Part shown: piece by piece, positions 6,646 to 46,617 of the stretch
How positions within the stretch are numbered: position 1 is the stretch's first letter
Layout: each line of letters opens with the position of its first letter
Assembly (NCBI GenBank): GCA_000998135.1
Contig: LCCV01000005.1
Location: 157 to 64,156, forward strand
Reading direction: 5' to 3'
From: Parcubacteria group bacterium GW2011_GWA2_42_14
GTDB taxonomy: Bacteria; Patescibacteriota; Minisyncoccia; Sungbacterales; GWA2-42-14
Length of the DNA stretch: 64,000 nucleotides
Notes under the pieces: generated by a model
Told to the model about the DNA's origin: nothing
Seen by the model: only the letters and a program-made list of their open reading frames with translations
Databases searched by the model: none
Translations under genes and position numbers: made by a program

Positions 6646-7295
6646 AGGTTTTTATGACGACGGGAAACACAAAGCCCCGCGCCAGCTAGGTCTTGCGACC
6701 CCATACCGGTTTCCCGATATGGCCCATCAAAGAGTTGCTGAACGCGGGGTTCAGTATCTTCATCGGGTCTTTATGCCATGCCCGGCGGTATGAACCGAAG
6801 GGTTTAGGACAATTAAATTGTTATCGTTATAACGACTATATCAAAAATGCCCGTTTCAATCAATTTTCTGTCCATTTCATAGCATAAATACTTGCTTTTG
6901 CGAAGGATCGAGTTATCAACAGCGGCTATTTGCAAACTCTTGATTTATTCAAAATAATTTGCTATTATGAAAATAATTGAATAGAAATCTTAGCGGCTGT
7001 CTCTAGTCTATAAAGATTATCAGATAGCTGTGTCGGCTAGACCGCCTAAGGTTTTATCAGCAATGCTATTTTGTATTGCTGTTGAAACTTTGGGCGGTTT
7101 TTATTTTTCGCCCCTTCGCCGCCACGGTCAACGGCGAAATGTAACCAAAGGAGAATATTGCTTATGAAATAAAACGCGTGCCATGAGTACGCAAAACGAA
7201 AATACTAAAAAACTCAGATATTAATAACGGAAACGGCTTATCCTAGAAAGGTTCAGTATAGAAACTTTCTTTGGTGAGCCGTTCCCTAAATTAAG

Positions 7296-8642: not shown

Positions 8643-9201
8643 AATAGAGGAAAAGCTAAAAATACTTGAAACGCTGAAAACAACGCCGGTGATTAGTGTG
8701 GCGTGCGCTAAGGCGGGCTTGGCGCGCGCCACAATCTATCGCTGGCTTAACGACGATATTGACTTCGAAAAACAAGTTCAACAGGCCATGAGATCCGGCG
8801 CTAAGAATATTAACGACTTGGCGTATGCAAAACTGATCCAGAAAATCAACGAAGGCAGTCTGGGAGCCACTACTTTTTACCTCTCACACCGGCATCCTTT
8901 ATTCAAAAAGAAAGAAAAATTTAAAGTGGAAGTGACACAGAAAAATTCTCCGATCTATGACATTCCCGAAAGTGCGTTTAACGAAGTTTTAATCAGTAAA
9001 CTCCCGAAAAAACTCAGAAAGCAAGTAGTAAGAAAAGCAATAAGGATACACGAGATAGTGCGACAAGCCATCGAGAAAGCGCGCAAGGAGCGCCCGTACT
9101 TGGGACCCAAAAACCCGTCATCAAAGTATTGTCTACAAGATACGCTGCCGTGGGGGTTAATTCTTAAGAGCGTTCTTGAAGAAGAAAAGGGGAAGAAATA
9201 G
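8632..9201 (+). CDS. HTH DNA-binding protein (terminase-small-subunit-like or transposase-HTH-like)
   Basis: PVISVACAKAGLARATIYRWLNDD reads as a helix-turn-helix. The start overlaps the MTase stop by 11 nt. Confidence 0.5.
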   Translation: MRDKIEEKLKILETLKTTPVISVACAKAGLARATIYRWLNDDIDFEKQVQQAMRSGAKNINDLAYAKLIQKINEGSLGATTFYLSHRHPLFKKKEKFKVEVTQKNSPIYDIPESAFNEVLISKLPKKLRKQVVRKAIRIHEIVRQAIEKARKERPYLGPKNPSSKYCLQDTLPWGLILKSVLEEEKGKK

Positions 9202-9303
9202 TTATCAACTGCTTGGTTTGAGGGGGTCTGGACTCACAGGAGGGGTTGCGTCATCAATGTCCTTGTCGAAAGGTTATTAAATAACTAAGTAAAACAAGGG
9301 CTT

Positions 9304-10647
9304 ATGAAACAATCAACAACAACCCCTCCTGACGCCTTGGGGAAAATGACGGCAGAAATAACTGTCATGGCGCCGCAGATGCGCTACTGTCTTTATGCGC
9401 GGAAGAGTACCGCCGAGGAGGACCGGCAGGCTCTTTCCATAGAATCGCAGGTAAAAGAAATGCTTGCGATGGCGGAACGCGAACGACTTCACGTGGTCGA
9501 AGTGAAGCGCGAATCGCACTCATCTAAAGAAGCTGGCCAGCGGCCAATCTTCAATCAGATGATCGCCGAGATCAAAGAGGAAAAGTACAACGGGGTGCTC
9601 GCGTGGGCACCAGACCGGCTTTCGAGAAATGCAGGAGACCTGGGTTCGGTGGTCGATCTGATGGACCAGAAGTTACTGGTTGAGATCAGAACTTACGGCC
9701 AGCGATTTACAAATAACCCGAACGAGAAATTTCTTTTGATGATTCTCGGCTCGCAGGCAAAATTGGAAAACGATCAAAAGGGCGTGAACGTAAAACGCGG
9801 GCTAAGAGCCAGATGCGAGATGGGTCTATGGCCTGCTCCGGCACCAACCGGATACCTCAACGACAAGAGCCGGGACAAAAAATGCCATATCATTATAGAT
9901 CCAAAACGCGGACCGGTTATAAAGCAAATGTATGAAAAAGTTGCGAATGAAAGTTGGAGCGGTAAACGGCTGTATCACTGGCTAAAAGATACAAAATTTA
10001 CATCCGTCTACGGCAAACCACTAACATTGAGTAATGTATATTTGATATTAAAAAATACCTTATATTATGGAGTGTTCGAATATCCGAAAAAAAGCGGAAA
10101 CTTGTACACCGGCATCCATCAGCCGCTTATAACAAAAGAGATTTTTGAAAAAGTGCAAACGCAGATCAAGAGAAGCAAGATCTTAAGCCCTTATGGTGGC
10201 AAGGAATTCGCCTTCACGCGGCTTATCTCATGCGGAAATTGCGGAACGACGCTGGGCGCGGATGAGAAATTGAAGAAACTCAAAAACGGGCACATAAATA
10301 GACATGTGTATTATAGCTGTACGAAACGATGGTCAAGAGATTGCAAAAGCGGATTCATCAACGAGCCCGAATTAATTGGACAGCTTATGGCCATCATCGA
10401 CACGGTTAAACTCGACAAAACCGGCATTAGGGAAAAACTTGATGGCGAGATCAGTCGCTATCGAAAATTCCAATCTGGTGTTCTCGGCATCAAAGAGATA
10501 CACGACCAAAAATCCAAGGACTTGGACATCCGGAATTATGCGAAATACATCTTCAAAGAAGGAGCAATCTATGAAAAACGCGAACTGCTATCGTGCTTGA
10601 GAAGCAAACTGATATTCAAAGATAAAAAACTTTCGCTCGAAGCATAA
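9304..10647 (+). CDS. Large serine recombinase (resolvase/invertase N-domain, recombinase domain, zinc ribbon)
   Basis: YARKSTAEEDRQALSIESQ matches the catalytic motif of serine recombinases. A CGNCGTT ... YYSC zinc-ribbon-like region lies in the C-terminal half. Confidence 0.85.
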   Translation: MKQSTTTPPDALGKMTAEITVMAPQMRYCLYARKSTAEEDRQALSIESQVKEMLAMAERERLHVVEVKRESHSSKEAGQRPIFNQMIAEIKEEKYNGVLAWAPDRLSRNAGDLGSVVDLMDQKLLVEIRTYGQRFTNNPNEKFLLMILGSQAKLENDQKGVNVKRGLRARCEMGLWPAPAPTGYLNDKSRDKKCHIIIDPKRGPVIKQMYEKVANESWSGKRLYHWLKDTKFTSVYGKPLTLSNVYLILKNTLYYGVFEYPKKSGNLYTGIHQPLITKEIFEKVQTQIKRSKILSPYGGKEFAFTRLISCGNCGTTLGADEKLKKLKNGHINRHVYYSCTKRWSRDCKSGFINEPELIGQLMAIIDTVKLDKTGIREKLDGEISRYRKFQSGVLGIKEIHDQKSKDLDIRNYAKYIFKEGAIYEKRELLSCLRSKLIFKDKKLSLEA

Positions 10648-32968: not shown

Positions 32969-34645
32969 TTAAAACTTATATATTCTAAAAACCTCAATCC
33001 CCTTTTTGTTGTAAAGAAATACTGAGGAATAGCCCCTGGATAAAAGCTCTTTTTCAAAAAGACCGCCGGTTTCGGTCAGACGTTCCGGTTTCTTCAGCGG
33101 AACATTTTGGGTCATGGCAATAAAATAAAAATAATTAAAACCGGCTTTGGTGAAATAATCCTGCCCATTTTGCGCTAAAAACGACTGGTAATCTTCGGTT
33201 TTAAGAACAGGCCAACCGTGATAAATTTGCAGACGGTCTAAATACCAAATCTGGGGCCCGTTCAGCATGTTGCCGTCATATATTATTAATGCCGGATACG
33301 GTTCCGCTCCTTTTTGTTTGCGCAGGGCAACCGTTTTTGCCTGAAGGGCTTCAATAAATTTATAGCGCGCGTCAAAAACAAAAGCCGGCATTTTTCCGGA
33401 TAATTCCCTGTCAAGATATTTGCCTAACTCCGCAAAACCCCAATTATAATTTTCATAACGGAGTTTTTGCGAATAAAACCACGGACTCGGCCCCTTCGAA
33501 GCATAAATAAGCTGGCTATTTACGGAATAAACAATTTCAAAAATTATAAATGCCGCAAAAAAATAAATTATCGTTGTTTTTAATTTTGGGAATTGCTGAT
33601 AAACGCTGTATATAAGGAAACCTATTCCCAAAGCCAAAAACGGGACAAGCATGGAAAGAAATCTCATTTGCGGTCCGATAAATCCCGCTATCAAAAATAC
33701 CAAAAACACCAATGAAACCAGCAGGAACCGGCTCTTGAATAATGCGGATAGTCCCAAAAATGACATTAAAAGAAATAACCAGGAATTACTTTGAATAAGA
33801 TTGGGCAAAAAGTTGCGGATGCGGTCGAGTATCGTTCCCGCTTCTTCTTTGCCCGGAGCGGTTTTCCAAACTTCAGGATGTTGCCCGAAGATATAAGAAA
33901 ATTGAAAATCAAAATGGCCGACCGCGCGGTAAAGTCCGAAATTATAAATCAGAACGGGACTGAAAATCAAAATGGCTAAAATAATATTCATCCAAAATTT
34001 CTTATTCCAAAAATACTCGCGGCGAAAAATAATAAAATAAATAAAAAGAACAGGAACGGTTATAAAAATTAAAGTGTATTTGGTTAAAAAACCCAAACCC
34101 ATGGATAATCCGACCAGCCAAAGAAAATTGTCATTTTTCAAAGACCTGACCAAGGCGTAAGAAAACAAAAGCAGGAAAAAAATCACGTATGGCTCCTGCA
34201 GGCCCACGCGGGAAATTAAAATATGGTTGGAGGAAACCGCCAGAATCAGGGCAGAAATGATTCCCACCAAAGGAGAAAAAAGTAGCGCGCCTAATTTATA
34301 AATAAGATAAACCGAAGCAATGCCGAATAAGGCCGCCGAAAACCGGAAAGCAAAAATATTTTCACCAAAAATTTTGATAAAAAAATGCTGGATTAAAAAA
34401 ACCAGCGGCGGATGGTCATGAAACGATAATTTTGTCCACCACGGAATATTTCCGTCAAACCACTGAAGGGGCGTTGTTTGAAATTCGGCAACATCATAAT
34501 CAAGCAATCCTACGGCACGAAAGGCGTATAAAACTTCGTCTCCGACAGGGTCCCCCGCCCCGATGCCCCACAAACGCAAAACCGCCGCCAAAAAAATAAT
34601 GGCGGCAAGAATATATATCGTATTCCGGTTACGTTTTATTTCCAT
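32969..34645 (-). CDS. GT39/GT83-like membrane glycosyltransferase (second paralogue)
   Basis: Polytopic, with an early GDPVGDEVLYAFRA DE-type loop. Confidence 0.55.
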   Translation of the reverse strand: MEIKRNRNTIYILAAIIFLAAVLRLWGIGAGDPVGDEVLYAFRAVGLLDYDVAEFQTTPLQWFDGNIPWWTKLSFHDHPPLVFLIQHFFIKIFGENIFAFRFSAALFGIASVYLIYKLGALLFSPLVGIISALILAVSSNHILISRVGLQEPYVIFFLLLFSYALVRSLKNDNFLWLVGLSMGLGFLTKYTLIFITVPVLFIYFIIFRREYFWNKKFWMNIILAILIFSPVLIYNFGLYRAVGHFDFQFSYIFGQHPEVWKTAPGKEEAGTILDRIRNFLPNLIQSNSWLFLLMSFLGLSALFKSRFLLVSLVFLVFLIAGFIGPQMRFLSMLVPFLALGIGFLIYSVYQQFPKLKTTIIYFFAAFIIFEIVYSVNSQLIYASKGPSPWFYSQKLRYENYNWGFAELGKYLDRELSGKMPAFVFDARYKFIEALQAKTVALRKQKGAEPYPALIIYDGNMLNGPQIWYLDRLQIYHGWPVLKTEDYQSFLAQNGQDYFTKAGFNYFYFIAMTQNVPLKKPERLTETGGLFEKELLSRGYSSVFLYNKKGIEVFRIYKF

Positions 34646-34706
34646 AGCACTTCTGTTGCTTATTGACTACCCCGCACGGATTATATCAAACAATAGGAAG
34701 TATTGC

Positions 34707-34988
34707 ATGTCACAGCCATTGTTGCCGTGGGATTCTCTCAAAAGTACCAACCACCCCCAACTAGTCTGGCGAAGCCAGCTCAATGACAGATATATCATTG
34801 AAATGCAACGTACTGGCGGTTATAGCGGCAAGCTCTTTGTATTCGATCACAACCAGAGTGATCAGGAAATTTTTTCTGTGGATGTCGGTCTGTCCTATTT
34901 AGCAATGTTCGGACCTGATATGGCCGATGTCCAAGAATGGCATGGCACTTTTGAATATGCGGTATCAATGGGAAACACTTTGCATTAA
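34707..34988 (+). CDS. Hypothetical protein, about 93 aa
   Basis: AGGAAG 8 nt before the ATG at 34707. The longer ORF starting at 34563 overlaps the GT39 gene and is rejected. Confidence 0.4.
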   Translation: MSQPLLPWDSLKSTNHPQLVWRSQLNDRYIIEMQRTGGYSGKLFVFDHNQSDQEIFSVDVGLSYLAMFGPDMADVQEWHGTFEYAVSMGNTLH

Positions 34989-35909
34989 AAGGTTTAATAC
35001 TCTGTCTCGATATTTTTCGGTTTCCTCGTCTCCGCCAGTTACTGGTATTTCTTTCTTCAAAATCTTCAAACAACCCAATACCAAGCGAATACGGAAATCT
35101 TCTTTAGTAAAACCTCGCCTCTCTAGAAAAACATCTACAATATCGGTTCTTGAAAGGGGCAATAAATCATAAATAGGATATTTTACAAAGCCCATCATGG
35201 GATCTTGAAACGACGCGGATTCAAAATCTAAGTACCCTGTGATTTTGCCATTCTGTGCTAAAAAGTTTCCTGGTTGATAATCGCCATTAGAAATTACCAA
35301 TGGCGTGTTGATATTTTTAAGGATATCTTGTAAATATATTACCGCCAACCGGTAGCCATCCTCACTAAGCCACAAATTATTCTCATCATTCAGTAATTCT
35401 AATTCTTTCGTTAAAGTAAAACGCGGCATCAATTTTACCACCTCGTGACCTTCAATAAATGGTGTCGCATCCATTAACTTAATGACTCCTTCAACCAGCA
35501 GCTCTTTTGCTTTTTGCAAGCTCTCTTCAGAACGCATGCTAACCCTCTGAAGGTTCTCTCCGGGAAGCAACGAGTATACTGCTTCACTTTCTCCTGATTC
35601 GTTTAAAAATGGTTTTACCAAAACCTTAGGGACAGGTAAACCAAATTCTTCCAGAGCACTAAATATTTGTATTTCTTTCTCTACATCGCCATGGCGATTT
35701 TTTCTTAACACAACAGCCGCATAATCTCCATTTCTTGTTTGAATAGTAACGCGAATGGGGCACGGCAAGTCATAATTATCAAAATACTCCGCTTTCACAA
35801 TCGAATGAAAATCAGGACTAATACCAAGAAGGGCCTTACGTTCAGCAACAGTTAATTCAACTTTTCTTTCTTCTTCACTATGAAATTGATTCATTGGTTC
35901 GTTTTCCAT
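34965..35909 (-). CDS. Phosphotransferase-family kinase (APH-like), second copy; start ambiguous (35909 or 35966)
   Basis: ISNGDYQPGNFL catalytic loop and YLDFESASFQDP. Confidence 0.55.
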   Translation of the reverse strand: MENEPMNQFHSEEERKVELTVAERKALLGISPDFHSIVKAEYFDNYDLPCPIRVTIQTRNGDYAAVVLRKNRHGDVEKEIQIFSALEEFGLPVPKVLVKPFLNESGESEAVYSLLPGENLQRVSMRSEESLQKAKELLVEGVIKLMDATPFIEGHEVVKLMPRFTLTKELELLNDENNLWLSEDGYRLAVIYLQDILKNINTPLVISNGDYQPGNFLAQNGKITGYLDFESASFQDPMMGFVKYPIYDLLPLSRTDIVDVFLERRGFTKEDFRIRLVLGCLKILKKEIPVTGGDEETEKYRDRVLNLLMQSVSH

Positions 35910-36247
35910 TATTGTAACTTGCCGCCTAGATTTACTGATTGTTTTGCGGGAGTAATCAACACCCAACCATCTCCGGCATTGTTTTTAAAGCCGAGCGTAA
36001 GAACTTCCGAAGAAAAATTTCCAATGCGTTTTGGAGGAAAATTAACGACGCAACAAACAAACATCCCAAAAAGTTCTTCTTTGGTATGCGCTCCAACCGC
36101 TTGCACACTTGATACCTTGATACCAATTTCTGCACCAAAATCTATTTTCAGCTTAAAAGCGGGCTTCCGCGCTTCGGGAAAATCTTCAATTTCAACAACT
36201 TTCCCCACCCGAACATCAACCTTATCAAAATCTTCGTATATAATCAT
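35909..36247 (-). CDS. CsaA/EMAP-like tRNA-binding domain protein; start ambiguous
   Basis: VDVRVGKVVEIEDFPEARKPAFKLKIDFG matches the tRNA-binding (Myf) domain. Confidence 0.6.
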   Translation of the reverse strand: MIIYEDFDKVDVRVGKVVEIEDFPEARKPAFKLKIDFGAEIGIKVSSVQAVGAHTKEELFGMFVCCVVNFPPKRIGNFSSEVLTLGFKNNAGDGWVLITPAKQSVNLGGKLQ

Positions 36248-36357
36248 ATATTTATAAATCTTACTATTCGCACGACACATCACGAATTGCTATTCATATG
36301 GCACTTTTTGCCTGCCCTGAGACCGCCGAAGAGATACGCGATATGAATTGGAAGTTA

Positions 36358-36585
36358 TTAAAGCAATTCCAAAAACATATCAACGCTCAAACCCGCTTGT
36401 TTGATAATTGATTTAATGGTCTTGGGTGTAAGTTCCTTACGGTGAAAAGGAACAGTAACCCGCAACTCCGGTTTAACTAAGTGGCGCAGCTGGATATGAC
36501 TTCCCGCCTGATGAAATTCATAAAACCGAGCTCGTTTAAGGGCTCGGATTACTAAAATCGAAGGTATGCGTGGTAGTTTCGGCAT
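36358..36585 (-). CDS. hicA: HicA-family toxin
   Basis: 75 aa; ...QAGSHIQLRH...TVPFHRKELTPKTIKSIIKQAGL. Confidence 0.7.
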   Translation of the reverse strand: MPKLPRIPSILVIRALKRARFYEFHQAGSHIQLRHLVKPELRVTVPFHRKELTPKTIKSIIKQAGLSVDMFLELL

Positions 36586-36588
36586 ACA

Positions 36589-36822
36589 TTACACGGAAAC
36601 CTTTATCCTCTCACGATGCGGCTCTGAAAAAGAAATTCTCCGGTCTTTAAGGAGGGCTTCCAGATAACAGCGAATAGCGTCCTTGGCCATTTCTCTTGCT
36701 TCTTTTAAATTATCTCCCTCGGTAACTAAACCGGGAAGTTTTGGAACAGTAACAGTGTATCCTGCTCCATTCGGGTCAAAAACTACCTCGTATTGATAGA
36801 TTATTTCTTTATGTTTCTTCAT
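36589..36822 (-). CDS. hicB: HicB-family antitoxin
   Basis: 77 aa; TVPKLPGLVTEGDNLKEAREMAKDAI. Lies 3 nt upstream of hicA. Confidence 0.7.
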   Translation of the reverse strand: MKKHKEIIYQYEVVFDPNGAGYTVTVPKLPGLVTEGDNLKEAREMAKDAIRCYLEALLKDRRISFSEPHRERIKVSV

Positions 36823-36857
36823 AGTTACATTATACCTTGTCTTAAATAAAAATACAA

Positions 36858-37352
36858 TTATTTACTCAGAAAAATTAAATCCCGCATGCGAATAAACTTG
36901 CCCTCGTAATCTCCAACATTTATTTCGCTCTCAAGCGTTTTTATGGCATCTTCTAATTTCATCCATTCTGGTTGAAACCCATCGTCAATTTCGTCACCAA
37001 CAAAATTAGGTAAACCTTTATCGCCAACAACGTCTGCAATATAGCAATAAGAAATCTGGTGTATTTTTAAATTGTTTCGATACTTCTCAATAATCCCAAG
37101 CTCTCGAATATTTTCGATAGAACAACCAATCTCCTCTAATACTTCTCTTCGTAACGCAGTTTCTATATCTTCGCCCTCTTCTATGCCGCCACCGGGGAGT
37201 TTGTGATAATTCTTTTTGGTAACATTCAACAATGCAACATTCCCATCTTTATCAAAAACAATCGCACGAGCCGCTTCGCGCTTGTCATAGTTGGGCGACG
37301 CTTGAGAATCAACTCCAATATCTGCATCCCGAATTGTTTTTAACAAATTCAT
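36858..37352 (-). CDS. NUDIX hydrolase
   Basis: Nudix box LPGGGIEEGEDIETALRREVLEEIG. Confidence 0.8.
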   Translation of the reverse strand: MNLLKTIRDADIGVDSQASPNYDKREAARAIVFDKDGNVALLNVTKKNYHKLPGGGIEEGEDIETALRREVLEEIGCSIENIRELGIIEKYRNNLKIHQISYCYIADVVGDKGLPNFVGDEIDDGFQPEWMKLEDAIKTLESEINVGDYEGKFIRMRDLIFLSK

Positions 37353-37357
37353 TTTTT

Positions 37358-37378
37358 TCCTATCTCCCGTGACATCGC
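37358..37378 (-). repeat. secA-3'-end-like element, copy 1; encodes I-K-R-C-H-G-R-stop, immediately upstream of the NUDIX ATG
   Basis: Reverse complement AAGCGATGTCACGGGAGATAGG aligns with the true secA terminus at 41824-41845. Confidence 0.75.
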
Positions 37379-37408
37379 TTGATTTATAACATCAATGGTG
37401 TTAGAGAT

Positions 37409-39019
37409 TTACAATACCTTCGCTTTTTGTAAAACTCGACGAACAGAATGGGGATAATTATGTACTTTCGCGAGAGCAGAAGATGCCTGTTCCTTGCTAA
37501 TGAAACCCACAGTAACTTCTCGTGCCAATCGTGTCGTATCTGGATGAAACCCGAGCATACGTTTTGCCTTACTTTCCGCGGCTCGCGCAAAAAGGCAAGA
37601 ATTTGCGTTGGATTCAATTAATCTCTCGCCTCGCGGAATTTTCCAGCCTAATTTTCTTAAAATTCTTTCCGTATCTTCTATTTTACGCTGAAGCAAAAAT
37701 GGCAAATGAACAATATATACGGGTGGCTTATTCTTAAACGGCTGCAATTTCCTTATAGCAGAGAAAATAAACTTTTTCGACTCACTATCTTGGCTTAATC
37801 CAGCCCATTCGTTTATACCAAGAATAACCACTTTTACTCCTCGCTTCAATGCTTCACCATAATATGCGCGGACGACGAGCCGTCTGCATAACTGACATGT
37901 TCGCACAAAAGGAATTTTATGCTGGCATTTAACTGAATAATGCCTACGTCCTTCCACATACCATTTCCGAAACTTCTCTTTCAGCTCTTGGGAATCACGC
38001 TCATTGTATAAATCTGATGTCTTTCGGAAACATATTCGATCAACTGAGCGCATGTATATTCTGGCATCTATCTTTTCATAATCTACTTTTAGCTTTTTAG
38101 CCACTGTTTTTGCCCGCTGGAAAATATGTTTCGGATAGTATCCAGTATCTAATGAAAAAGTAAGCGGTATAAAACCCATTTGCTTTGCAGTGTACAAAGT
38201 TGCAGTGCTGTCCTTGCCGCCAGAAATTCCGACCATGGCATCATGTTTCTCTTTTCCAGAACCCCTGAGTGAGAGTAAAAATCTTAATTCTTTTTGCAAA
38301 ACAGCACCGCTGAAATTTTTCTCGTATTTCTCGCAAACATCGCATAATCCATATTTACCAATAACACTGGATAAATTTGAACTTGTGTTAACGCATTTTT
38401 TGCATTCTGCCGCCCCAATCAATGCTTTGATTTGAGCAGCAATCTCTTTCTTCGACGTAACAGCCGTATTGAAAGTAAGGTGCGCAATACGCTCCACCTT
38501 ATTCGTAGAAAACAGTCGTTCCTCAATTTGTCTTTCTTTCTCCGCATCTTTCTTTGAAAAACTCTCTCTCCTCGAAATCCTACCTGTTAAATATTTATCG
38601 GGCGTTTTAAGATATACGACCAAATATCCATTTTTCTTAAAATACATTGAATTTCTGAAACCGCGAATGCCCGCAATAATTAACGACTTATGAAAAAACT
38701 TTTTCCTGTGCAGATAAATAAGCGTTTTTGCAATAACAGCTGATGAATATTTGTTCTTAAGATAAACAAACATCTGCTGCGCTTCATCCCTCGAGAATTT
38801 CCGTTTATGGCGTAATTTCAATATTGCCCGAATAAAATCCGTCTCTCGCGGCGGCAGTTCTTCTTTTATTGAGATAGCTGGATATATTACGGAGCTGGAT
38901 GCTTCAACATATTTCGCTTCAGGAAAAATTTTAAGAAAAGATTTGGCAACCGTAGTTTTTCCGCTTCCTGGCGCTCCGAAAACAACAATGCCGTGAAATT
39001 TATTTATTTTCCTATTCAT
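37409..39019 (-). CDS. Fusion protein: N-terminal P-loop kinase-like NTPase plus C-terminal PP-loop ATP pyrophosphatase (TtcA/QueC/TilS-like) with Cys clusters
   Basis: GIVVFGAPGSGKTTVAKSF Walker A at the N-terminus. VGISGGKDSTATLY PP-loop in the C-terminal half. CDVCEKYEK and CQLCRRL cysteine pairs. Confidence 0.6.
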   Translation of the reverse strand: MNRKINKFHGIVVFGAPGSGKTTVAKSFLKIFPEAKYVEASSSVIYPAISIKEELPPRETDFIRAILKLRHKRKFSRDEAQQMFVYLKNKYSSAVIAKTLIYLHRKKFFHKSLIIAGIRGFRNSMYFKKNGYLVVYLKTPDKYLTGRISRRESFSKKDAEKERQIEERLFSTNKVERIAHLTFNTAVTSKKEIAAQIKALIGAAECKKCVNTSSNLSSVIGKYGLCDVCEKYEKNFSGAVLQKELRFLLSLRGSGKEKHDAMVGISGGKDSTATLYTAKQMGFIPLTFSLDTGYYPKHIFQRAKTVAKKLKVDYEKIDARIYMRSVDRICFRKTSDLYNERDSQELKEKFRKWYVEGRRHYSVKCQHKIPFVRTCQLCRRLVVRAYYGEALKRGVKVVILGINEWAGLSQDSESKKFIFSAIRKLQPFKNKPPVYIVHLPFLLQRKIEDTERILRKLGWKIPRGERLIESNANSCLFARAAESKAKRMLGFHPDTTRLAREVTVGFISKEQASSALAKVHNYPHSVRRVLQKAKVL

Positions 39020-39069
39020 ATGACACTTCGGAGATATTTACTACGCTAAAAAATCCAATAAATACGCGA

Positions 39070-39093
39070 CTTATCCATTTCCATGACATCGCT
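39070..39093 (-). repeat. secA-3'-end-like element, copy 2; encodes ...KKQRCHGNG-stop
   Basis: Reverse complement GCAGCGATGTCATGGAAATGGATAAG. Confidence 0.7.
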
Positions 39094-39202
39094 GCTTTTT
39101 TAATAACCAACCGCAGGAGTTTTCTTTATTTTAAGCCATTTTTTCGTCTGTGCCACATCCTGATTTGCCTAAATATAGAAAATGTCATGCGGACATAAAA
39201 AC

Positions 39203-39232
39203 TTGACAAATACCATACTACCATGCTATACT
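39203..39232 (+). promoter_or_regulatory. Consensus sigma70-type promoter
   Basis: TTGACA at 39203-39208, an 18-nt spacer, then TATACT at 39227-39232. The SD AAGGAGG at 39270-39276 lies 5 nt before the ATG at 39282. Confidence 0.7.
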
Positions 39233-39281
39233 TATAGCAAAGTTCCGAATCCCACAATCAATCTTTTAAGGAGGAACCGAA

Positions 39282-39494
39282 ATGGAGACCCACACTCTCA
39301 CGACCAAGCAGTTGCGGAAGCTCGTCAACGCGATCGGCAGCGGAAGCGACTGGCCGAAGCATACGGACGATCTGAAGGTGAACTACGCTGTCGACTGCAT
39401 CGTGCAGGACGATGGCGATGTGCCCCCCTACGACGAACGGCTGTATGTCGAGGAAATCGAGGCCTTCAAGGCACTCGAAGCCAAGACCGGCTAG
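39282..39494 (+). CDS. 70-aa acidic protein of unknown function in a roughly 60% GC island (compositional outlier)
   Basis: Strong SD plus ATG. GC-rich codons (GAG ACC CAC ACT CTC ACG ACC AAG CAG ...) in an otherwise AT-rich genome. Confidence 0.6.
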   Translation: METHTLTTKQLRKLVNAIGSGSDWPKHTDDLKVNYAVDCIVQDDGDVPPYDERLYVEEIEAFKALEAKTG

Positions 39495-39541
39495 TCAACC
39501 AAGTGCTTAGCATCACTTAAAACTGCTCTTTTTTATTTGTT

Positions 39542-39561
39542 TTATCTCCCGTGACATCTCT
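39542..39561 (-). repeat. secA-3'-end-like element, copy 3; encodes KRCHGR-stop with no downstream gene
   Basis: Reverse complement AAGAGATGTCACGGGAGATAA. Confidence 0.7.
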
Positions 39562-39750
39562 TGATGTGCGGTACTAATGGGAAATTGACTAATTAAATAA
39601 GTGAACGAACTTGTTTCCTTAAATAATTCTGATATTCATGCTGAAGCTTAGATAAATTAGGGATTAACTTTCCGACCATCTTATGCATTTGAAATATAAA
39701 TTTTGGTTTTCCATTACTGAATTCCTTAATCGGAAGATTCAATAAAATAT

Positions 39751-40332
39751 TCATGATTTGTTCAAATCCTTAATATTTTCTTGGAGAACATTTCTTATCG
39801 GCTGTTCGTATTCTTCGGGAACAATATATGATATCGCGTTATATACCTCCTCGACTCGTTTTTTGGTCGGTATAAACTCTATTTTGATATTTGATACCTG
39901 AATACCTCTTGGATCAAAACCGCCGTCTTCCGCAATAATAGTATAAATTTTTTCCTCAATGGGCTTTTTAAATAAAGCTAATAATAAATCCAGTACCCCC
40001 TTGGCGGCATTACCACTGCCAATTTCATCATCTACAAACAATATATCTTTTATATTCAGTAAGGATATATTTTGAAAATCTCCGGCTAATGTCGAATTGT
40101 CAAATAAAATTGCTTCCTTTTCATCTGCGTGACGATAAATTGGCGCCACCACAGTCTGCGGACAATCAACTTTTAACAATTCATAAACCAATCTGGTTAA
40201 ATAAATCATTATCTGGCCTGAATCCCCTGCGCCAATAATAATATCAAACTTTCTTTTATCGTTTACCAACAAACGCTTAAAAGTTTTTATAAATTGCGAT
40301 AGAGAATCTTCTCCTAGTTTTCCGAGGTCCAT
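39751..40332 (-). CDS. Phosphoribosyltransferase (type I PRTase) domain protein
   Basis: PRPP-binding loop ILFVDDEIGSGNA. Confidence 0.6.
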   Translation of the reverse strand: MDLGKLGEDSLSQFIKTFKRLLVNDKRKFDIIIGAGDSGQIMIYLTRLVYELLKVDCPQTVVAPIYRHADEKEAILFDNSTLAGDFQNISLLNIKDILFVDDEIGSGNAAKGVLDLLLALFKKPIEEKIYTIIAEDGGFDPRGIQVSNIKIEFIPTKKRVEEVYNAISYIVPEEYEQPIRNVLQENIKDLNKS

Positions 40333-40519
40333 GTAAAATTTAATTTATTTTTTACTTATAAGTCTTTGGGGTTCTTCGCTATTAACCCTTCAATAAATTC
40401 GGGGCAAATTCCTTGATAAACTCCCTCGATAAAACTCGGGACAAATCAGAGCAAGCAAGTCCCCAGCATTTTATCCTGAGCCCGCCGAAGGGTTGGTGCG
40501 CGGATACGGATGGAAAAAT

Positions 40520-41110
40520 CTACAACGACAAACCCTGTTGGAATTGTAAAACTTCCAAGTTACGAATTAAAATTGTCCGCTTCGTTGTCGCCGTAAGCCC
40601 TTTGTTCGGCATCATTTCAAAACCAAGATAAATACTTTCAACATTTCTTTTATTCAATTCGCGAATAGCCGGCTGTAAATCAGAATCAGAACTTCCCACA
40701 ATCGCAGTTTTTATAATTTTATCACAAGCGGCAACAACCATATCAACCGCGATACTAATATCTACGCCTTTTTCTTTAAACACCAACACATCTTTTCCTC
40801 TCCCGTCTCTCCTGTAATTGCCTCTTACTGCGCCGGAAAGAATTACCCTGAAACCCTGATTCTCCAAGTGAACTTTAAGAAGACGGCGTTGTAAAATAAG
40901 TTTCTGGGATTTTTCTTTGGTGTCCGGATGCTCTTTGATTTTAGCAAAATAAAAAATTCTTTCATCAACCTTTATCCCCTTAAGGACATGACCTAACAAC
41001 CCGCGAAAATTGTAAGTTGCCCAAACCGGAAATGACTTCTTTTCCACCTCAAATGTATCTTCCAGTTTGCCCAAAAAATTTCTTCCGTCTATAAAAAGTA
41101 TTGTTTTCAT
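40520..41110 (-). CDS. NYN-domain (LabA/PIN-like) putative RNase
   Basis: ILFIDGRNF at the N-terminus. GVDISIAVDM and VGSSDSDL acidic motifs. Confidence 0.6.
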   Translation of the reverse strand: MKTILFIDGRNFLGKLEDTFEVEKKSFPVWATYNFRGLLGHVLKGIKVDERIFYFAKIKEHPDTKEKSQKLILQRRLLKVHLENQGFRVILSGAVRGNYRRDGRGKDVLVFKEKGVDISIAVDMVVAACDKIIKTAIVGSSDSDLQPAIRELNKRNVESIYLGFEMMPNKGLTATTKRTILIRNLEVLQFQQGLSL

Positions 41111-41318
41111 AGCATAATTAGCAATAAAATGAAACCCCAGCGGACCTTTCGGCTGGCTGGGGCGTTTGTAATTCTATTATACCAAACCGAACATTTTTGT
41201 AAAGAGCTTATCCACAGGCATGTTTATGCCTCTTTCCATGACTCTTTTTTTACCTTCGGCAGCCGCTTAAAATTTTCCATAACATTTTTTGATGTGCTGT
41301 ATAAATGGAAACATTCTT

Positions 41319-41819
41319 TTACAAAGTATTGATCTTTGAACCACGAAGTAATTCAAATCCTCTTTTTATAGCCTTTATTTCAGGATCTTGTTCGCCTTTC
41401 TCTTTAGTCAATATCTGACTGAGTTCGTTTTCGGCTATCCAAAGAAGTTGTGAATGAACGGCTGGGTCGAGATTGATTTTTTCGATTGCATCTTCAAATG
41501 CGGCAAAATAAATTACTTCAATCGAGTGAGATCCTTTTACATCATTGATATAAGTAAAAACGTAAAATGGATCGCCAATGATAACATGAATCCCAAATTC
41601 CTCAAAGATTTCTCTTTTCAAACCATCAATGGTGGTTTCTCCGAAATCAATATGTCCGCCAGGCAATTCAAAGACTCCTGGCAAGAACTTTTTAGTACCT
41701 GCACGTTTCGGTACAAACAATTTTTCGACGCCATCGAAATTATGATGGATAAAAGCGTAAGCAGTTATCACTTGCTGGCCTTTGGCTGGTTTTTCGCTTT
41801 CGTGAGATGTTGTATTCAT
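41319..41819 (-). CDS. NUDIX hydrolase
   Basis: Nudix box LPGGHIDFGETTIDGLKREIFEEFG. Confidence 0.8.
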   Translation of the reverse strand: MNTTSHESEKPAKGQQVITAYAFIHHNFDGVEKLFVPKRAGTKKFLPGVFELPGGHIDFGETTIDGLKREIFEEFGIHVIIGDPFYVFTYINDVKGSHSIEVIYFAAFEDAIEKINLDPAVHSQLLWIAENELSQILTKEKGEQDPEIKAIKRGFELLRGSKINTL

Positions 41820-41825
41820 ATTTTC

Positions 41826-44558
41826 CTATTTTCCATGACATCGCTTATACTTTTTCCCTGAACCGCACGGGCAGGGGTCGTTTCTTCCCACCTCACTAGT
41901 GAGACGCGGATTTGACGCTGATCCGCTATCCGCCTGCGAGCTCAAACCGCTGATTTTACGCTGATCAAATCCGGAAGAATTAATATCAGGCCGCCGCTCT
42001 TCAACTTTTCGAAACTGCGGTTGAGCCGCAACGCCGACCTTATATATAGTATTTACCACCTGCGAACGAATGGCGGCCCGCAGTTCCTTGAAAAGGCGCG
42101 AGCCCTCGTTTTTGTATTCAACCAACGGGTCGCGCTGGCCATAGGCGCGAAGGCGCACCGAATCCCGAAGATGCTCCATAATATCCAAATGATCCATCCA
42201 GAGCATATCAATAGTTTGTAATAAAACAACTTTTTCCAGATTTCTCATGCCTTCCTCGCCTATCAATTTTTCTCGTTCGTCATAAAAATTATTCAAAAAT
42301 TCAACCGCGTGTTCCTTGATTTTTTCCCGGCCGTCTTCTTCGTTTGATTCCTGCGCCAACTCTTCAAATTTTTTATGCAATCCATCCGCCAAACCACCTG
42401 TGGTGAGCGAAGCCGAACCAGAAATTGCCCTTATAGTTTCAGAAATTTCTTCAAGATTCCAATCGGAACGATATCCGGCAGTATGAAAATCAACAACCAT
42501 AGAAACTTCCTCCTGAACAAACTCCATGATTTTTTCTTTATGAGGATGGACGCCGCTTGCGGTGAGCGAAGTCGAACCGCGCAAAATTTCGTTTCTCAAC
42601 TTATACACAAAATTCCTTTGTTTATTCATCACGTCATCAAACTCCAAAATGTGCTTGCGGGAATCAAAATGAAAGCCCTCGATTTTGGCTTGTGCCGCTT
42701 CAATGGCTTTGGAAACCATTTTATTTTCAATGGGCTGGTCTTCGGGAATTCCGAACGACTCCATCATACTTTTTATCCTCTCCGACCCGAAAATTCTCAT
42801 AACTTCATCCTCCAGAGATAAGAAAAACTGCGTTGAACCGGGGTCGCCCTGACGACCGGCACGACCACGCAACTGATTATCAATACGTCTGGCTTCATGC
42901 CGCTCGGTGCCTATGACATGGAGACCGCCTGCCCCCTTAACCTTTTGGGCCTCTTCAATGCTCGGCGGATTCCCCCCCAAAATAATATCAACACCGCGAC
43001 CGGCCATATTGGTGGCAATAGTAACGGCCCCCAAACGTCCTGCTTGCGAAATAATATTTGCTTCCCTTTCATGATTCTTGGCGTTCAAAATTTCATGCGG
43101 GACCCCATCACGTTTAAGAAGCGCGCCCAATCGTTCGTTCTTTTCAATGGATACTGTTCCCACAAGAACCGGCTGACCCAGCTTATGCCTTTCTTTAATT
43201 TCATTAACTACGGCTCTCATCTTTCCTGTTTCTGTTCTGAATATAAGGTCCGGGGAATCGCGCCGTATCAGCTGTTTATTCGTCGGAATTATAATCACAT
43301 CAAGCTTATAAACCTTATGGAATTCCTCTCCATTGGTTGCCGCGGTTCCGGTCATGCCAGCGAGCTTGGCATACATCCTGAAATAATTTTGAAAAGTGAT
43401 GGTAGCGAGCGTTCGTGACTCCCTTTGAACCTGCACATTTTCTTTGGCTTCAATTGCTTGATGAAGCCCTTCGGACCATCTCCTACCAGGCATAAGACGC
43501 CCGGTAAATTCATCAACAATAATTACTTCGCCGTCTTTCACAACATAATCTTTATCCAGATGAAAAAGCGCTTGCGCCCTCAATGCCTGCTCCAGATACC
43601 GGACATATCTGAATCCTTTTTCCTCGTATAAATTTTTAATGCCAAGGATTTTTTCAACTTTTTCAATTCCAGGTTCGGTTATGGAAACTGCTTTTAATTT
43701 ATGGTCAACGTTATAATCATTGTTTTCTTCAAGACGCGGAGTTATGCGTGAAAAAGTTTTATATAAATCCGCTGATTCTTCGTCGGGAGCGGAAATTATC
43801 AAGGGGGTTCGCGCTTCATCAATCAAAATAGAATCAACTTCATCAACAATCGCGAAATTATGCTCTCGCTGGGATAAATTATTGATGTCATAGGCCAAAT
43901 TATCCCGAAGATAATCAAAACCGAATTCGTTGTTAGTGCCATAAGTGATATCCGCTCCGTAGGCTTCGTGCCGGGAGCAAGGCCTCCAATGGTCAAGCCG
44001 CGGGTCGCCATGCGACGGCTCTGCCTGAAAATCCGGGTCATAAATTCCCGAAAAATCATGAGCGATAACACCTACTGAAACACCAAGAGCATAGTAAACC
44101 GGACCCATCCACCCGCCACCCACGCGAGACAAATAATCATTGGGAGTAACCAAATGACATCCCTTGCCGGTTAAAGAGTTTAAATATAAAGGAAGAGTGG
44201 CCACCAGTGTTTTTCCCTCGCCGGTTCTCATTTCAGCGATTTTGCCCTGATGCAAAACAATTCCGCCGATAAGCTGAACGTCAAAATGCCGCTGATTTAA
44301 TGTTCTTCGCGCGGCCTCGCGAACAGCCGCAAATGCTTCGGGCAAAATGTCATCAAGCGTTTCTCCGCCCCCCAACGGTTCGGCTTCGCTCACCGCAAGC
44401 AATCTTTTCTTAAACTCAACGGTTTTTTGCTTAAGTTCATCCGCCGACAACTTCTGAAATTCCGGCTCAAGCGAATTGATTTGGTCAACCAAGGGCTGAA
44501 CGGATTTTATATACCGCTCATTGGAATCTCCTAAAATTTTAGACAGGATAGAAGACAT
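41826..44558 (-). CDS. secA: Preprotein translocase ATPase SecA
   Basis: MRTGEGKTLVATLP Walker A, conserved SecA N-terminus, and the C-terminal zinc-binding CPCGSGKKYKRCHGK. Confidence 0.95.
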   Translation of the reverse strand: MSSILSKILGDSNERYIKSVQPLVDQINSLEPEFQKLSADELKQKTVEFKKRLLAVSEAEPLGGGETLDDILPEAFAAVREAARRTLNQRHFDVQLIGGIVLHQGKIAEMRTGEGKTLVATLPLYLNSLTGKGCHLVTPNDYLSRVGGGWMGPVYYALGVSVGVIAHDFSGIYDPDFQAEPSHGDPRLDHWRPCSRHEAYGADITYGTNNEFGFDYLRDNLAYDINNLSQREHNFAIVDEVDSILIDEARTPLIISAPDEESADLYKTFSRITPRLEENNDYNVDHKLKAVSITEPGIEKVEKILGIKNLYEEKGFRYVRYLEQALRAQALFHLDKDYVVKDGEVIIVDEFTGRLMPGRRWSEGLHQAIEAKENVQVQRESRTLATITFQNYFRMYAKLAGMTGTAATNGEEFHKVYKLDVIIIPTNKQLIRRDSPDLIFRTETGKMRAVVNEIKERHKLGQPVLVGTVSIEKNERLGALLKRDGVPHEILNAKNHEREANIISQAGRLGAVTIATNMAGRGVDIILGGNPPSIEEAQKVKGAGGLHVIGTERHEARRIDNQLRGRAGRQGDPGSTQFFLSLEDEVMRIFGSERIKSMMESFGIPEDQPIENKMVSKAIEAAQAKIEGFHFDSRKHILEFDDVMNKQRNFVYKLRNEILRGSTSLTASGVHPHKEKIMEFVQEEVSMVVDFHTAGYRSDWNLEEISETIRAISGSASLTTGGLADGLHKKFEELAQESNEEDGREKIKEHAVEFLNNFYDEREKLIGEEGMRNLEKVVLLQTIDMLWMDHLDIMEHLRDSVRLRAYGQRDPLVEYKNEGSRLFKELRAAIRSQVVNTIYKVGVAAQPQFRKVEERRPDINSSGFDQRKISGLSSQADSGSASNPRLTSEVGRNDPCPCGSGKKYKRCHGK

Positions 44559-44607
44559 AATAACAGGTTTAAGTATATATCATTTGGCACCTTTTTTAAA
44601 GCCAACT

Positions 44608-44632
44608 AAAAACTGCTGTTACAGCAGTTTTT
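44608..44632 (-). terminator. Terminator hairpin after hpf
   Basis: AAAACTGCTGTtACAGCAGTTTT. Confidence 0.6.
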
Positions 44633-44633
44633 C

Positions 44634-45026
44634 CTATCTTCTCCTTTTTATCCTTGCCAAAGGGTCAACCTTTAATTCTTCCATGACAATTCTTTGCCGC
44701 CGCCTATTTTTGTCGGCGCGCTTTTCTTTATATTTTCTAAGTTCGGCAGATAATTCCGCTTGAACCATATCAATAGCAGAACGAATATCCTCCGCCTCGG
44801 CTTCAGCCCTTAAAAATACCTTCGGGAGAACCAAATTAACTTCCGCCCGCCAAATCCTGCCTTTTTGGTGATGCCTGGTTTCTCTTTCAATCTCAATATC
44901 AAGAGAGGCGGGCTTAACCAAATTTTCGTCCTTTAATAGCTTGGCAACAATCCTTACTATTTTTAAATCAACATAAACGCGCAAAGGGGCGTCAATGCTA
45001 AATCCGGTTGTTTTTAAATTGAATTT
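44634..45026 (-). CDS. hpf: Ribosome hibernation-promoting factor / RaiA family (short HPF)
   Basis: From the internal Met MKFNLKTTGFSIDAPLRVYVD onward. Pattern ...HHQKGRIWRAEVNLVLP ... AEDIRSAIDMVQAELSAELRKYKEK. The ORF-track N-terminal extension to 45113 is rejected. Confidence 0.7.
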   Translation of the reverse strand, partial: KFNLKTTGFSIDAPLRVYVDLKIVRIVAKLLKDENLVKPASLDIEIERETRHHQKGRIWRAEVNLVLPKVFLRAEAEAEDIRSAIDMVQAELSAELRKYKEKRADKNRRRQRIVMEELKVDPLARIKRRR

Positions 45027-45068
45027 CATACTTATCTTAAGTATAACAGTATAATTTATTACAAGCAA

Positions 45069-45094
45069 GCAAACCGGTTTGCAAACCGGTTTGC
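45069..45094. promoter_or_regulatory. Tandem 14-bp palindromes GCAAACCGGTTTGC x2 (sharing GC) upstream of hpf
   Basis: Perfect dyad symmetry, 43-68 nt upstream of the proposed hpf start. Confidence 0.6.
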
Positions 45095-45294
45095 TGATAT
45101 AAGATTTATTCAAAACATGGCGCTCAATTTTATATTTATGCTCGTTTCGCCTTCAGCGAAACTGCGCGTAAACAAAATTGGCACTTATCCACAGTTGACG
45201 CAAAAAATTATTTATCATAAACTTAAAATAGTTACTCTTTTTTATTGATCGCCGGGGAGGACCCTCGCACACGCTTGCGGGGGTTTTTACAACA

Positions 45295-46617
45295 ATGAAC
45301 GGAAATCAAACAGCATTGGAAAAGAAAAAATTTCTTTTTGTATCGCTTGAATCCCTAAGCGGCGATTTGGCGTGGACGCTTAAAAAAGAAGGGCATGAAG
45401 TTAAAATTTTTATAAAATCAAAGAGCGATGCTGATGTATATGACGGTTTTCTTGAAAAGGTTTCCGACTGGGAGGAGCACACCGACTGGGCGGACGTAAT
45501 AATTTTCGATGACGTAGAATTCGGCCCGGTAGCGGAAAAACTGAAAAAAAAGGGCAAACTTGTAATAGGGGGCAACAAGTATACGGATGAACTGGAAATG
45601 AACCGGGAATTCGGACAAACGGAACTTAAAAAGTACGGGGTAAACATTCTTCCCCAATGGCACTTTGCGAATTATGACGAAGCAATAGAATTCATCAAAA
45701 AAAACCCGGACCGCTATGTTTTTAAACCATCGGGCAATATGCCATCGGGAGAAAAGGGACTGCTTTTTATCGGCCAGGAAGAAGACGGGAAAGACCTTCT
45801 GGAGCTCCTTGAACAAAATAAAACCGTATGGACAAAAAAAGCGCCGACGTTTCAGCTCCAAAAATTCATATCGGGAGTGGAAATCGCCGTAGGCGCTTTT
45901 TTCAACGGGAAAGATTTTATTTATCCCATTAACGTCAATTTCGAGCATAAACGCATCTTTCCGGGAGATATCGGCCCGTTTGCCGGTGAAATGGGGACAT
46001 TGATGTTCTGGAGCGAACCAAACCGACTTTTTAAACATACTCTTGAAAAAATGAAAGCGCCGCTGGCAGAATCGGGCTATAGCGGCTATGTGGACATCAA
46101 CTGCATCGTAAACGGAAAAGGCATCTACCCGCTTGAATGGACATGCAGGTTCGGATACCCCACTATTGAAATTCAACTTGAGGGCATTCTCATGCCGGCC
46201 GGAGAATTTCTTTATAAACTCGCGGGAGGAGAAACATTTGAACTGAAAACAAAAAAGGGATTCCAAATCGGCGTACGAATAATGGTGCCCACCTATCTTG
46301 TCCGTTCAAGCGATAAAGAGACAACGGAACTTTACCGAGACCTTCCGATTCTTTTCAAAAAAAACGACAGCCTTGAGGGCATACACATAGAAGACATTAA
46401 ATTAGCCGACGGGGTTTGGAGAATTGCCGGCGAATCCGGGGTACTCATGGTAGTAACCGGTTCCGGCACTACGGTTGAAGAGGCGCGCCGCCAAGTTTAC
46501 TCCCGCATCAAAAACATCATGGTTCCAAACATGTTTTACCGCGTAGATATAGGACATAGGTGGCTTGAAGATTCGGATAAGCTTCAGACATGGGGGTATT
46601 TGGATACCTTTATTTAA
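45295..46617 (+). CDS. ATP-grasp enzyme, PurD (phosphoribosylamine-glycine ligase)-like
   Basis: GDIGPFAGEMGT and LEWTCRFGYPTIE resemble the PurD GPNTGGMG and EFNCRFGDPE motifs. Confidence 0.55.
   Translation: MNGNQTALEKKKFLFVSLESLSGDLAWTLKKEGHEVKIFIKSKSDADVYDGFLEKVSDWEEHTDWADVIIFDDVEFGPVAEKLKKKGKLVIGGNKYTDELEMNREFGQTELKKYGVNILPQWHFANYDEAIEFIKKNPDRYVFKPSGNMPSGEKGLLFIGQEEDGKDLLELLEQNKTVWTKKAPTFQLQKFISGVEIAVGAFFNGKDFIYPINVNFEHKRIFPGDIGPFAGEMGTLMFWSEPNRLFKHTLEKMKAPLAESGYSGYVDINCIVNGKGIYPLEWTCRFGYPTIEIQLEGILMPAGEFLYKLAGGETFELKTKKGFQIGVRIMVPTYLVRSSDKETTELYRDLPILFKKNDSLEGIHIEDIKLADGVWRIAGESGVLMVVTGSGTTVEEARRQVYSRIKNIMVPNMFYRVDIGHRWLEDSDKLQTWGYLDTFI

Follow-up and report, generated by a model that had tools for sequence, protein, structure and literature searches.

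A GC-rich, moron-like single-gene unit beside secA in a Sungbacteria genome, apparently exchanged horizontally among CPR bacteria

A small GC-rich gene in a contig of Parcubacteria group bacterium GW2011_GWA2_42_14 appears, from comparison with related genomes, to be a moron-like, horizontally transferred ORFan. The gene lies at 39282-39494 on the plus strand of the 64,000-nt stretch that we analyzed (contig LCCV01000005.1; hereafter the window, by which we mean the whole stretch). It encodes a protein of 70 amino acids within what would be a self-contained single-gene transcription unit at 39107-39541, consisting of an upstream block, a sigma-70 promoter, a Shine-Dalgarno site, the 70-codon open reading frame (ORF) and a weak terminator; we refer to this unit as the cassette. 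In the model we propose, the unit would circulate horizontally among bacteria of the candidate phyla radiation (CPR), including Sungbacteria, Saccharibacteria and other Patescibacteria, landing at different chromosomal sites, bringing its own expression signals and mostly keeping a GC-rich codon usage unlike that of its host. At the window locus, the cassette would be an old tail-to-tail neighbor of secA, and its ORF and 3' untranslated region (3'UTR) would recently have been replaced by, or shared with, an allele of a co-occurring 52%-GC Sungbacteria lineage. The blocks of toxin-antitoxin (TA)-like and defense-like genes on both sides would be later arrivals at copies of the secA 3' end, and the protein would bind a conserved partner in the sphere of phage-host conflict. 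We hold the evolutionary and anatomical part of this model (a circulating unit, an old secA resident, a recent allele exchange) with good confidence. The overall reading, a moron-like gene circulating out of a phage-host conflict pool, is in our view probable, by a smaller measure. For the function we offer a tentative proposal, a small cytoplasmic binding protein of that gene pool that modulates a conserved host or defense component, because of the protein's size and charge, its strong predicted expression, its relatives in phage arrays and its defense-rich surroundings.

The cassette was first singled out in an earlier note made from the sequence alone, and we found the promoter, Shine-Dalgarno site and ORF, with the 70-amino-acid product quoted there, at the positions it gave. 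Its description of the ORF as compositionally foreign, at roughly 60% GC, also held. The GC content is 59.2% (0.61/0.34/0.83 by codon position) against 40.9% for the window, and only 0.08% of the 213-nt segments of the 64 kb are equally GC-rich. GC content at third codon positions (GC3) averages 0.39 in the 54 long ORFs of the window (standard deviation 0.06, maximum 0.53), so that the value of 0.83 lies ~7 standard deviations out. The edges of this GC step coincide with the Shine-Dalgarno site and start codon on one side and with the stop codon on the other. Highly expressed genes typically prefer C-ending codons; the codons used here (CGG, ACG, CCG, GCG, CTC, GTC) look like the product of mutational GC bias. 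The protein is acidic, as had been proposed, with an isoelectric point (pI) of 4.6 and 14 Asp plus Glu residues (20%) to 8 Lys plus Arg.

We compared the window with L001, a contig of the 52%-GC Sungbacteria lineage, which is also represented by nine near-identical contigs. The flanking orthologues of the two genomes are synonymously saturated, with proportions of synonymous differences (pS) of 0.81 for secA, 0.78 for APH and 0.84 for HPF and protein identities of 75%, 70% and 53%, respectively. The 70-codon ORF, in contrast, has a pS of 0.065 and is 94.8% identical at the nucleotide level. Along the locus, identity is 73% in the upstream block (39107-39202, including a 25-nt identical run at 39120-39144), 87% in the promoter (39203-39232), 59% in the leader (39233-39281), 94.8% in the ORF, 93.6% in the 3'UTR (39495-39541) and 82% in the remnant of a secA end that follows. 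Because the ORF and 3'UTR are 94-95% identical while the flanking orthologues are saturated, this pattern indicates a recent recombination tract that spans both; the leader, at only 59% identity, would lie outside it. Frozen codons cannot explain the near-identity, since other pairs in the family reach synonymous divergences (dS) of 0.3 to >1. The allele is common to two lineages that co-occur at the Rifle site.

The earlier note had itself raised the possibility of an assembly artifact, and we rejected a chimera because the same locus recurs in independent assemblies. Positions 33282-45494 are 100% identical in GCA_001820775.1, positions 33282-40726 are 100% identical in an independent ENA assembly, and positions 33282-45494 are 99.77% identical in GCA_001822305.1, with 28 differences, none of them in the cassette. 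All 28 differences from the 99.77%-identical contig (L038), which comes from a metagenome-assembled genome (MAG), fall into two clusters, at 40937-41131 (the 5' region of the NYN gene) and at 43062-43773 (inside secA), which suggests recombination tracts within the population. The exact 70-amino-acid protein is also on record from Candidatus Sungbacteria/Parcubacteria MAGs.

The comparison with L001 also bears on the history of the locus. In L001, the cassette stands between the APH gene and secA, convergent with secA and 47 nt from its stop codon, and in two further contigs (L018 and L021) it likewise adjoins secA-end sequence. By blastn, the APH gene (34987-35792) and secA (42032-44363) of the window are ~70% identical to their L001 counterparts, and 39115-39562 is 86.5% identical. 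In the window, a secA-end remnant of 22 nt at 39542-39563 directly follows the cassette 3'UTR, as in L001; its reverse complement reads ...KRCHGR*, again as in L001, and the real secA of the window (minus strand, 41818-44558, ORF 41826-44558) ends ...CHGK* at 41826. Because the cassette directly adjoins the secA end in L001, and also in L018 and L021, this orphan copy is best read as the ancestral junction between cassette and secA. The minus-strand block at 39585-41817, which carries a 53-amino-acid ORF, a PRTase-CE-like gene, a NYN gene similar to HEC-09, a repeat at 41263-41313 and a NUDIX gene similar to PDC-S07, would then have been inserted later, parting the cassette from secA, and the cassette would be an old resident of the site, tail to tail with secA. 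These comparative data reverse the structural part of the earlier note, which had taken the orphan secA-end copy as the mark of a lost gene and the cassette as a recent insertion or gene replacement in an accessory patch. No gene was lost, the copy being the old junction. Of the recent replacement, the lateral exchange of ORF and 3'UTR stands (pS 0.065 against 0.78-0.84); the cassette is no new insertion, and it is the flanking blocks that are inserted material.

A hidden Markov model of the secA-end repeat found copies in the window at 34926-34975, 37353-37400, 39078-39106 (weak), 39539-39584, 41263-41313 and 41818-41870, the last being the true secA 3' end and the founder copy; no copies occur in the rest of the 64-kb window outside 34.9-41.9 kb. 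All are in one orientation, are ~45 nt long and consist of the secA 3' end (core ...KRCHG[RK]*) and a common arm, GATGTGCGGTAYNAATGGRAA; the arm that adjoins the orphan copy, at 39564-39584 (plus strand), is common to the copies at 34926-34975, 37353-37400 and 41263-41313. The copies bound co-oriented minus-strand blocks whose products resemble TA and candidate defense proteins, and the immediate neighbors of the cassette (APH, TA, NUDIX, PRTase, NYN and secA) include no prophage genes; the HicAB pair, 2.5 kb from the cassette, is complete. A contig from Hainich (L018, Sungbacteria-like, host ~44% GC) repeats the pattern independently with other cargo at the same place: across positions 1-1800, HicAB and the cassette are followed by a secA-end remnant, then by a ParE-type TA pair that has been inserted there, and finally by another secA-end copy (1676-1698) and secA itself. 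The arrangement resembles the outcome of repeated site-specific insertion at the secA 3' end rather than an integron, and we rejected an attC reading of the repeats, which were not seen to fold into hairpins. Within the secA coding region of the window, the 20-nt sequence GCGGTGAGCGAAGCCGAACC occurs three times with at most one mismatch, twice as a direct repeat (42400-42419 and 42559-42578, plus strand) and once inverted (44377-44396, minus strand), and is translated both ways (GS[AT]SLT... and LAVSEAEP); these copies are present only in the secA of the window lineage and absent from that of L001 and L018.

The unit occupies at least six unrelated genomic contexts. It is convergent with secA in the window, L001, L018 and L021. 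A 39%-GC contig (L023, 3546-4076) carries a copy on the antisense strand of an atp operon that is otherwise intact; this copy separates atpA from atpG, and its -35 hexamer overlaps the start codon of atpG. In L017 (101-563), a 79-amino-acid ORF without Pfam matches and, after it, the family gene make up a GC-rich two-gene unit upstream of hrcA-grpE. Further copies stand beside UPF0102, beside a PolB-exonuclease-like gene and near tRNA genes in a Saccharibacteria MAG. For the 13 chromosomal copies with DNA, the ORF has a GC content of 52-61% and a GC3 of 0.58-0.86, on host contigs of 37-53% GC in which the genes neighboring the copies have a GC3 of 0.34-0.63. GC3 exceeds that of the host in 12 of the 13, with only L014 near native; in L001, the gene has 0.82 against 0.58 (maximum 0.66) in its neighbors. 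The hosts of lowest GC (L023, L024 and L022) carry the genes of lowest GC3 (0.58-0.65), consistent with partial amelioration. The composition excess is a family trait in CPR chromosomes. The earlier note had reasoned that conservation with native composition in related genomes would speak against a foreign origin, and the outcome is divided: the gene is conserved in relatives, yet it remains GC-richer than the host in nearly all of them.

The expression signals are largely conserved as well. The promoter (39203-39232, plus strand), TTGACA-18 nt-TATACT with a TG extended -10 (TGcTATACT) and an A-tract just upstream, matches the consensus at 11 of 12 hexamer positions, and the Shine-Dalgarno site AAGGAGG at 39268-39274 lies in the leader (~42 nt), with the ATG 7 nt further on. 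The -35, -10 and Shine-Dalgarno elements are kept in six lineages while the leader diverges, and a TTGACA-type promoter with a Shine-Dalgarno site is present in all inspected copies but L017. The earlier note had called this expression unit unusually textbook; its elements bear out the description, but near-consensus promoters (at least 11 of 12 matches) are not rare here, with 8 sites in 64 kb against 1.3 expected, and the cassette promoter is good without being unique in this genome. No intrinsic terminator after the ORF passes a standard scan. Alignment with relatives makes visible a weak, terminator-like hairpin, GAGCR-N11-YGCTC, at 39508-39528, followed by a run of six T at 39529-39534. 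Every chromosomal copy of the cassette has its own terminator-like 3' end, and the other copies have clear hairpin-plus-T-run ends; the L018 stem shows one compensatory pair, and the closing pair is disrupted in the window copy. In the upstream block, the 25-nt run at 39120-39144 (TTTTCTTTATTTTAAGCCATTTTTT) is identical between the window and L001 amid a diverged intergenic region and is largely common to L018. It overlaps a promoter-like site on the minus strand (GTGGCA-17-TAAAAT, 39156-39128) that would drive whichever gene stands upstream, and a divergent promoter or control region is one possible role of the block.

The ORF is, to judge from its relatives, a real protein-coding gene and a member of an unannotated family. 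A word-indexed search with the 70-amino-acid protein returned 12 homologues at 57-90% identity, and a profile search of 1.84 billion representative proteins returned 122 clusters at E <=1e-3, 54 of them at <=1e-10, most of 60-110 amino acids. Two of the hits (P0043 and P0116), which are leucine-rich-repeat-type or otherwise repetitive and match only the N-terminal helix, were treated as spurious. The family is marked by the motifs LTxEQxxKLxxAIGDGxD(W/F)PKxTDDPxVNYxVDCxV and YDExLYxxEIEAF and spans a pI of 4.1-5.2; its longer members have no Pfam domains as fusion partners. In codon-aligned copies, the ratio of nonsynonymous to synonymous substitution rates (dN/dS) is 0.1-0.45 for most pairs, and indels are whole codons. 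A GC-rich island in an AT-rich genome often turns out to be a structured RNA, and an alternative frame of 112 codons is open at 39182-39520, so that the segment could in principle be a noncoding RNA or an overlapping second gene with the 70-codon frame incidental. We rejected both candidates. RNA folding z-scores are unremarkable (-1.4 on the plus strand and 0.0 on the minus strand) with no Rfam match even at E <=10, and no alternative frame stays open across the homologues, overlapping or antisense. With substitutions in a codon pattern, dN/dS below 0.5 and a protein family of 122 clusters, this explanation is effectively refuted, and its probability is negligible. Structure prediction and comparison, which the earlier note had named as a way forward, gave an AlphaFold2 model of three helices (residues 8-18, 31-41 and 52-69; predicted local distance difference test score, pLDDT, 86; predicted template modeling score, pTM, 0.72), and neither homology search nor fold comparison matched it to any known family or fold.

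A gene of such composition need not have moved at all. It could be a native, vertically inherited neighbor of secA, small and very highly expressed, in which selection for translation speed or accuracy or for mRNA stability has kept GC-rich codons. This would account for a position beside secA that is syntenic in four lineages, for a GC step that coincides exactly with the coding region, for a strong and conserved promoter and Shine-Dalgarno site, and for a GC3 excess that persists between subfamilies saturated at synonymous sites, where turnover has not erased it. However, the gap between the ORF and its flanks in the same genome pair (pS 0.065 against ~0.8) is wider than codon selection alone could produce, the dS of other pairs attests that synonymous sites do change, and the unit is also found in unrelated contexts, one of them inside the atp operon. 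Codon selection alone also fits the GC excess poorly because the codons look mutational rather than C-ending and because housekeeping genes of these contigs, such as dnaK and the atp genes, have no comparable GC3. On codon type, pS gap and housekeeping genes we therefore judged translational selection insufficient as the sole cause of the high GC3, and we regard the native-gene explanation as quite improbable. GC-biased gene conversion is compatible with a circulating unit. Here the gene would be a recombination hotspot among co-occurring CPR lineages, and biased repair of heteroduplexes would raise GC3 within the tract. The tract over ORF and 3'UTR can be seen directly, in that identity is 94-95% there but 59% in the leader, with the flanks saturated; GC3 is raised in 12 of 13 hosts whatever the host GC; the clustering of differences between two population variants in nearby tracts points to active recombination; and recombination is reported to correlate with GC3 in bacteria (Lassalle et al. 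2015). Yet the AT-rich 3'UTR lies inside the tract and is not enriched, and the bacterial effect sizes are said to be far below +0.4 GC3; we consider this explanation, too, unlikely. Import from a GC-richer reservoir and GC-biased conversion at a recombination hotspot, acting singly or together, are the candidate causes of the excess, and we infer repeated import from such a reservoir, possibly with GC-biased conversion added during recurrent recombination.

For the function, the earlier note had proposed an anti-defense protein (an anti-CRISPR or anti-restriction mimic) or an antitoxin, carried by a cassette recently inserted into a defense patch. The protein is indeed small, acidic and, by prediction, strongly expressed; TA- and defense-like genes abound in its neighborhood (HicAB, the HEC-09-like NYN, the PDC-S07-like NUDIX and PRTase genes, and a ParE pair in L018); and distant relatives are found among early-type small genes of phage-like contigs. 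Like Ocr, ArdA, anti-CRISPRs, Neisseria DMP19 and DMP12 and HI1450, it is short and acidic, lacks enzymatic motifs and has a family-specific predicted fold, with high predicted expression and some relatives in phage early-type gene arrays. Unlike them, it carries only a moderate charge (pI 4.6, 20% Asp plus Glu), and the cassette is chromosomal, syntenic with secA and without an aca partner. DNA mimics imitate the DNA backbone with carboxylates arrayed on their surface and have a very low pI; the values here are a pI of 4.1-5.2 over the family and 20% Asp plus Glu in the window copy, on a three-helix model. No similarity to a known Acr, Ard, Ocr or antitoxin family or fold was found, and no aca-like helix-turn-helix (HTH) gene or toxin gene is adjacent; rather than being co-transcribed with a toxin, as a type II antitoxin would be, the gene has its own promoter and terminator between divergent or convergent neighbors. 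The unit also predates the defense-like blocks at its site, most other copies adjoin housekeeping genes, and a constitutive inhibitor of the host's own defenses would presumably be costly. An antitoxin role is unlikely, given a predicted monocistronic unit without a toxin partner; an anti-defense role is possible. Taken as a whole, the proposal strikes us as doubtful.

The preferred reading, a moron-like gene from a phage-host conflict pool, takes its phage link from four more distant family members (P0081, P0079, P0064 and P0087). These lie in contigs made up of dense co-oriented arrays of 50-140-amino-acid ORFs without Pfam matches, where the GC content of the gene is native. Their neighbors match phrog_1017 (NADAR-like), phrog_1550 (QueC-like) and phrog_1617, and a GP88-like neighbor has tblastn matches in 268 phage records. 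Phage morons are defined by their own promoter and terminator, deviant GC content, horizontal spread and a single accessory ORF (PMC3594210). The cassette resembles morons such as the HK97 gene 15 moron in forming a transcription unit of its own around one small ORF of accessory function, in its deviant composition (GC3 0.83 against 0.39) and in its horizontal spread (pS 0.065 against 0.8 in the flanks). It differs in that it sits in a CPR chromosome among housekeeping and accessory genes, with no prophage genes adjoining and no family matches in phage records or in pattern-limited scans of IMG/VR, in its weak terminator and in a product without sequence relation to any described moron product. 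Because the unit sits in chromosomes, it is moron-like, not a moron. A PP-loop/QueC-like protein adjoins the family gene both in the window (37409-39019, minus strand, 536 amino acids, with an N-terminal P-loop domain) and in a phage-like contig (L034, 1114-1809, 231 amino acids, phrog_1550), which may be coincidence.

Several observations weigh against this reading. The phage link depends on the four distant homologues, whose profile E-values run from 1e-8 to 1e-11. Searches by tblastn of INPHARED phages and PLSDB plasmids with the window protein and two distant members gave no match, and four pattern-limited scans of IMG/VR found no family member. Simple import of foreign DNA does not fully explain the composition, because the GC step stops exactly at the ORF ends though the AT-rich 3'UTR belongs to the exchanged tract, and no GC-rich donor (~60% GC) for the gene was identified. 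Synteny with secA in four lineages is also expected from vertical descent, and the terminator of the window copy is weak. Finally, the window copy may be under relaxed constraint, since two near-invariant residues of the family, Asp and Pro, are replaced in it by Ser20 and Leu31, and its dN/dS against L001 is 0.74, on only 11 differences.

The arrangement around the cassette can be compared with other known systems. As in island accretion at gene 3' ends, classically those of tRNA and tmRNA genes, direct repeats of a target 3' end bound successive co-oriented blocks, the target end is regenerated and the cargo is TA- and defense-like. Here, however, the target is secA, the blocks measure only 0.5-2.4 kb and contain no integrase, the only recombinase found being a large serine recombinase 25 kb away, and the 70-codon unit, which faces the other way within the array, predates at least the secA-side block. 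The array of short co-oriented cassettes with a repeated site between them and TA modules in the cargo also recalls integron gene cassettes. Those are typically promoterless, whereas this unit has its own promoter; no significant attC-like hairpin was detected in the flanking repeats or the cassette 3'UTR, and no intI or attI lies nearby. The serine recombinase (9304-10647; Resolvase, Recombinase and Zn_ribbon_recom domains) lies in a segment of slightly raised GC content at 7296-10647, together with a fusion of ParB-N and N6-N4 DNA methylase (7296-8642) and an HTH protein (8632-9201). This segment may be what is left of an integrative element, and its recombinase is a candidate for acting on the secA-end array.

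CPR bacteria have tiny genomes, and their gene exchange and interaction with phages are little understood. The cassette offers a clean, datable case in which two Sungbacteria lineages that co-occur, and that are synonymously saturated in their housekeeping genes, have exchanged an allele. It defines an unannotated protein family common to CPR chromosomes and phage-like contigs, and it poses a compositional puzzle, an excess of GC over the host in 12 of 13 chromosomal copies that is confined to the coding region. The local architecture is also to be read anew, with the secA 3' end apparently a landing site for TA- and defense-like cargo and the 70-codon gene an old resident. If the protein does modulate defense or host machinery, it would found a new family and provide a new tool; otherwise it would be an ordinary small ORFan with an unusual history. 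A bolder and rather unlikely version is that such units make up an undescribed class of single-gene elements shuttling between CPR bacteria and phages. The ORF alone would be kept GC-rich in nearly all hosts examined, regardless of their own composition, by recurrent recombination between lineages, by GC-biased conversion or by selection at the nucleotide level, its acidic three-helix product would be a new modulator of a conserved host or defense component, and the cassette would be the fixed anchor beside a secA-end integration hotspot that gathers TA- and defense-like cargo.

Elsewhere in the window, a LOOT RNA (RF03000) lies on the minus strand at 6688-6810, with a score of 65.7 bits against a gathering score of 46.4. 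Its neighbors are a 382-amino-acid ORF, a C5 cytosine methylase (4395-5408) and a small ORF at 3992-4429.

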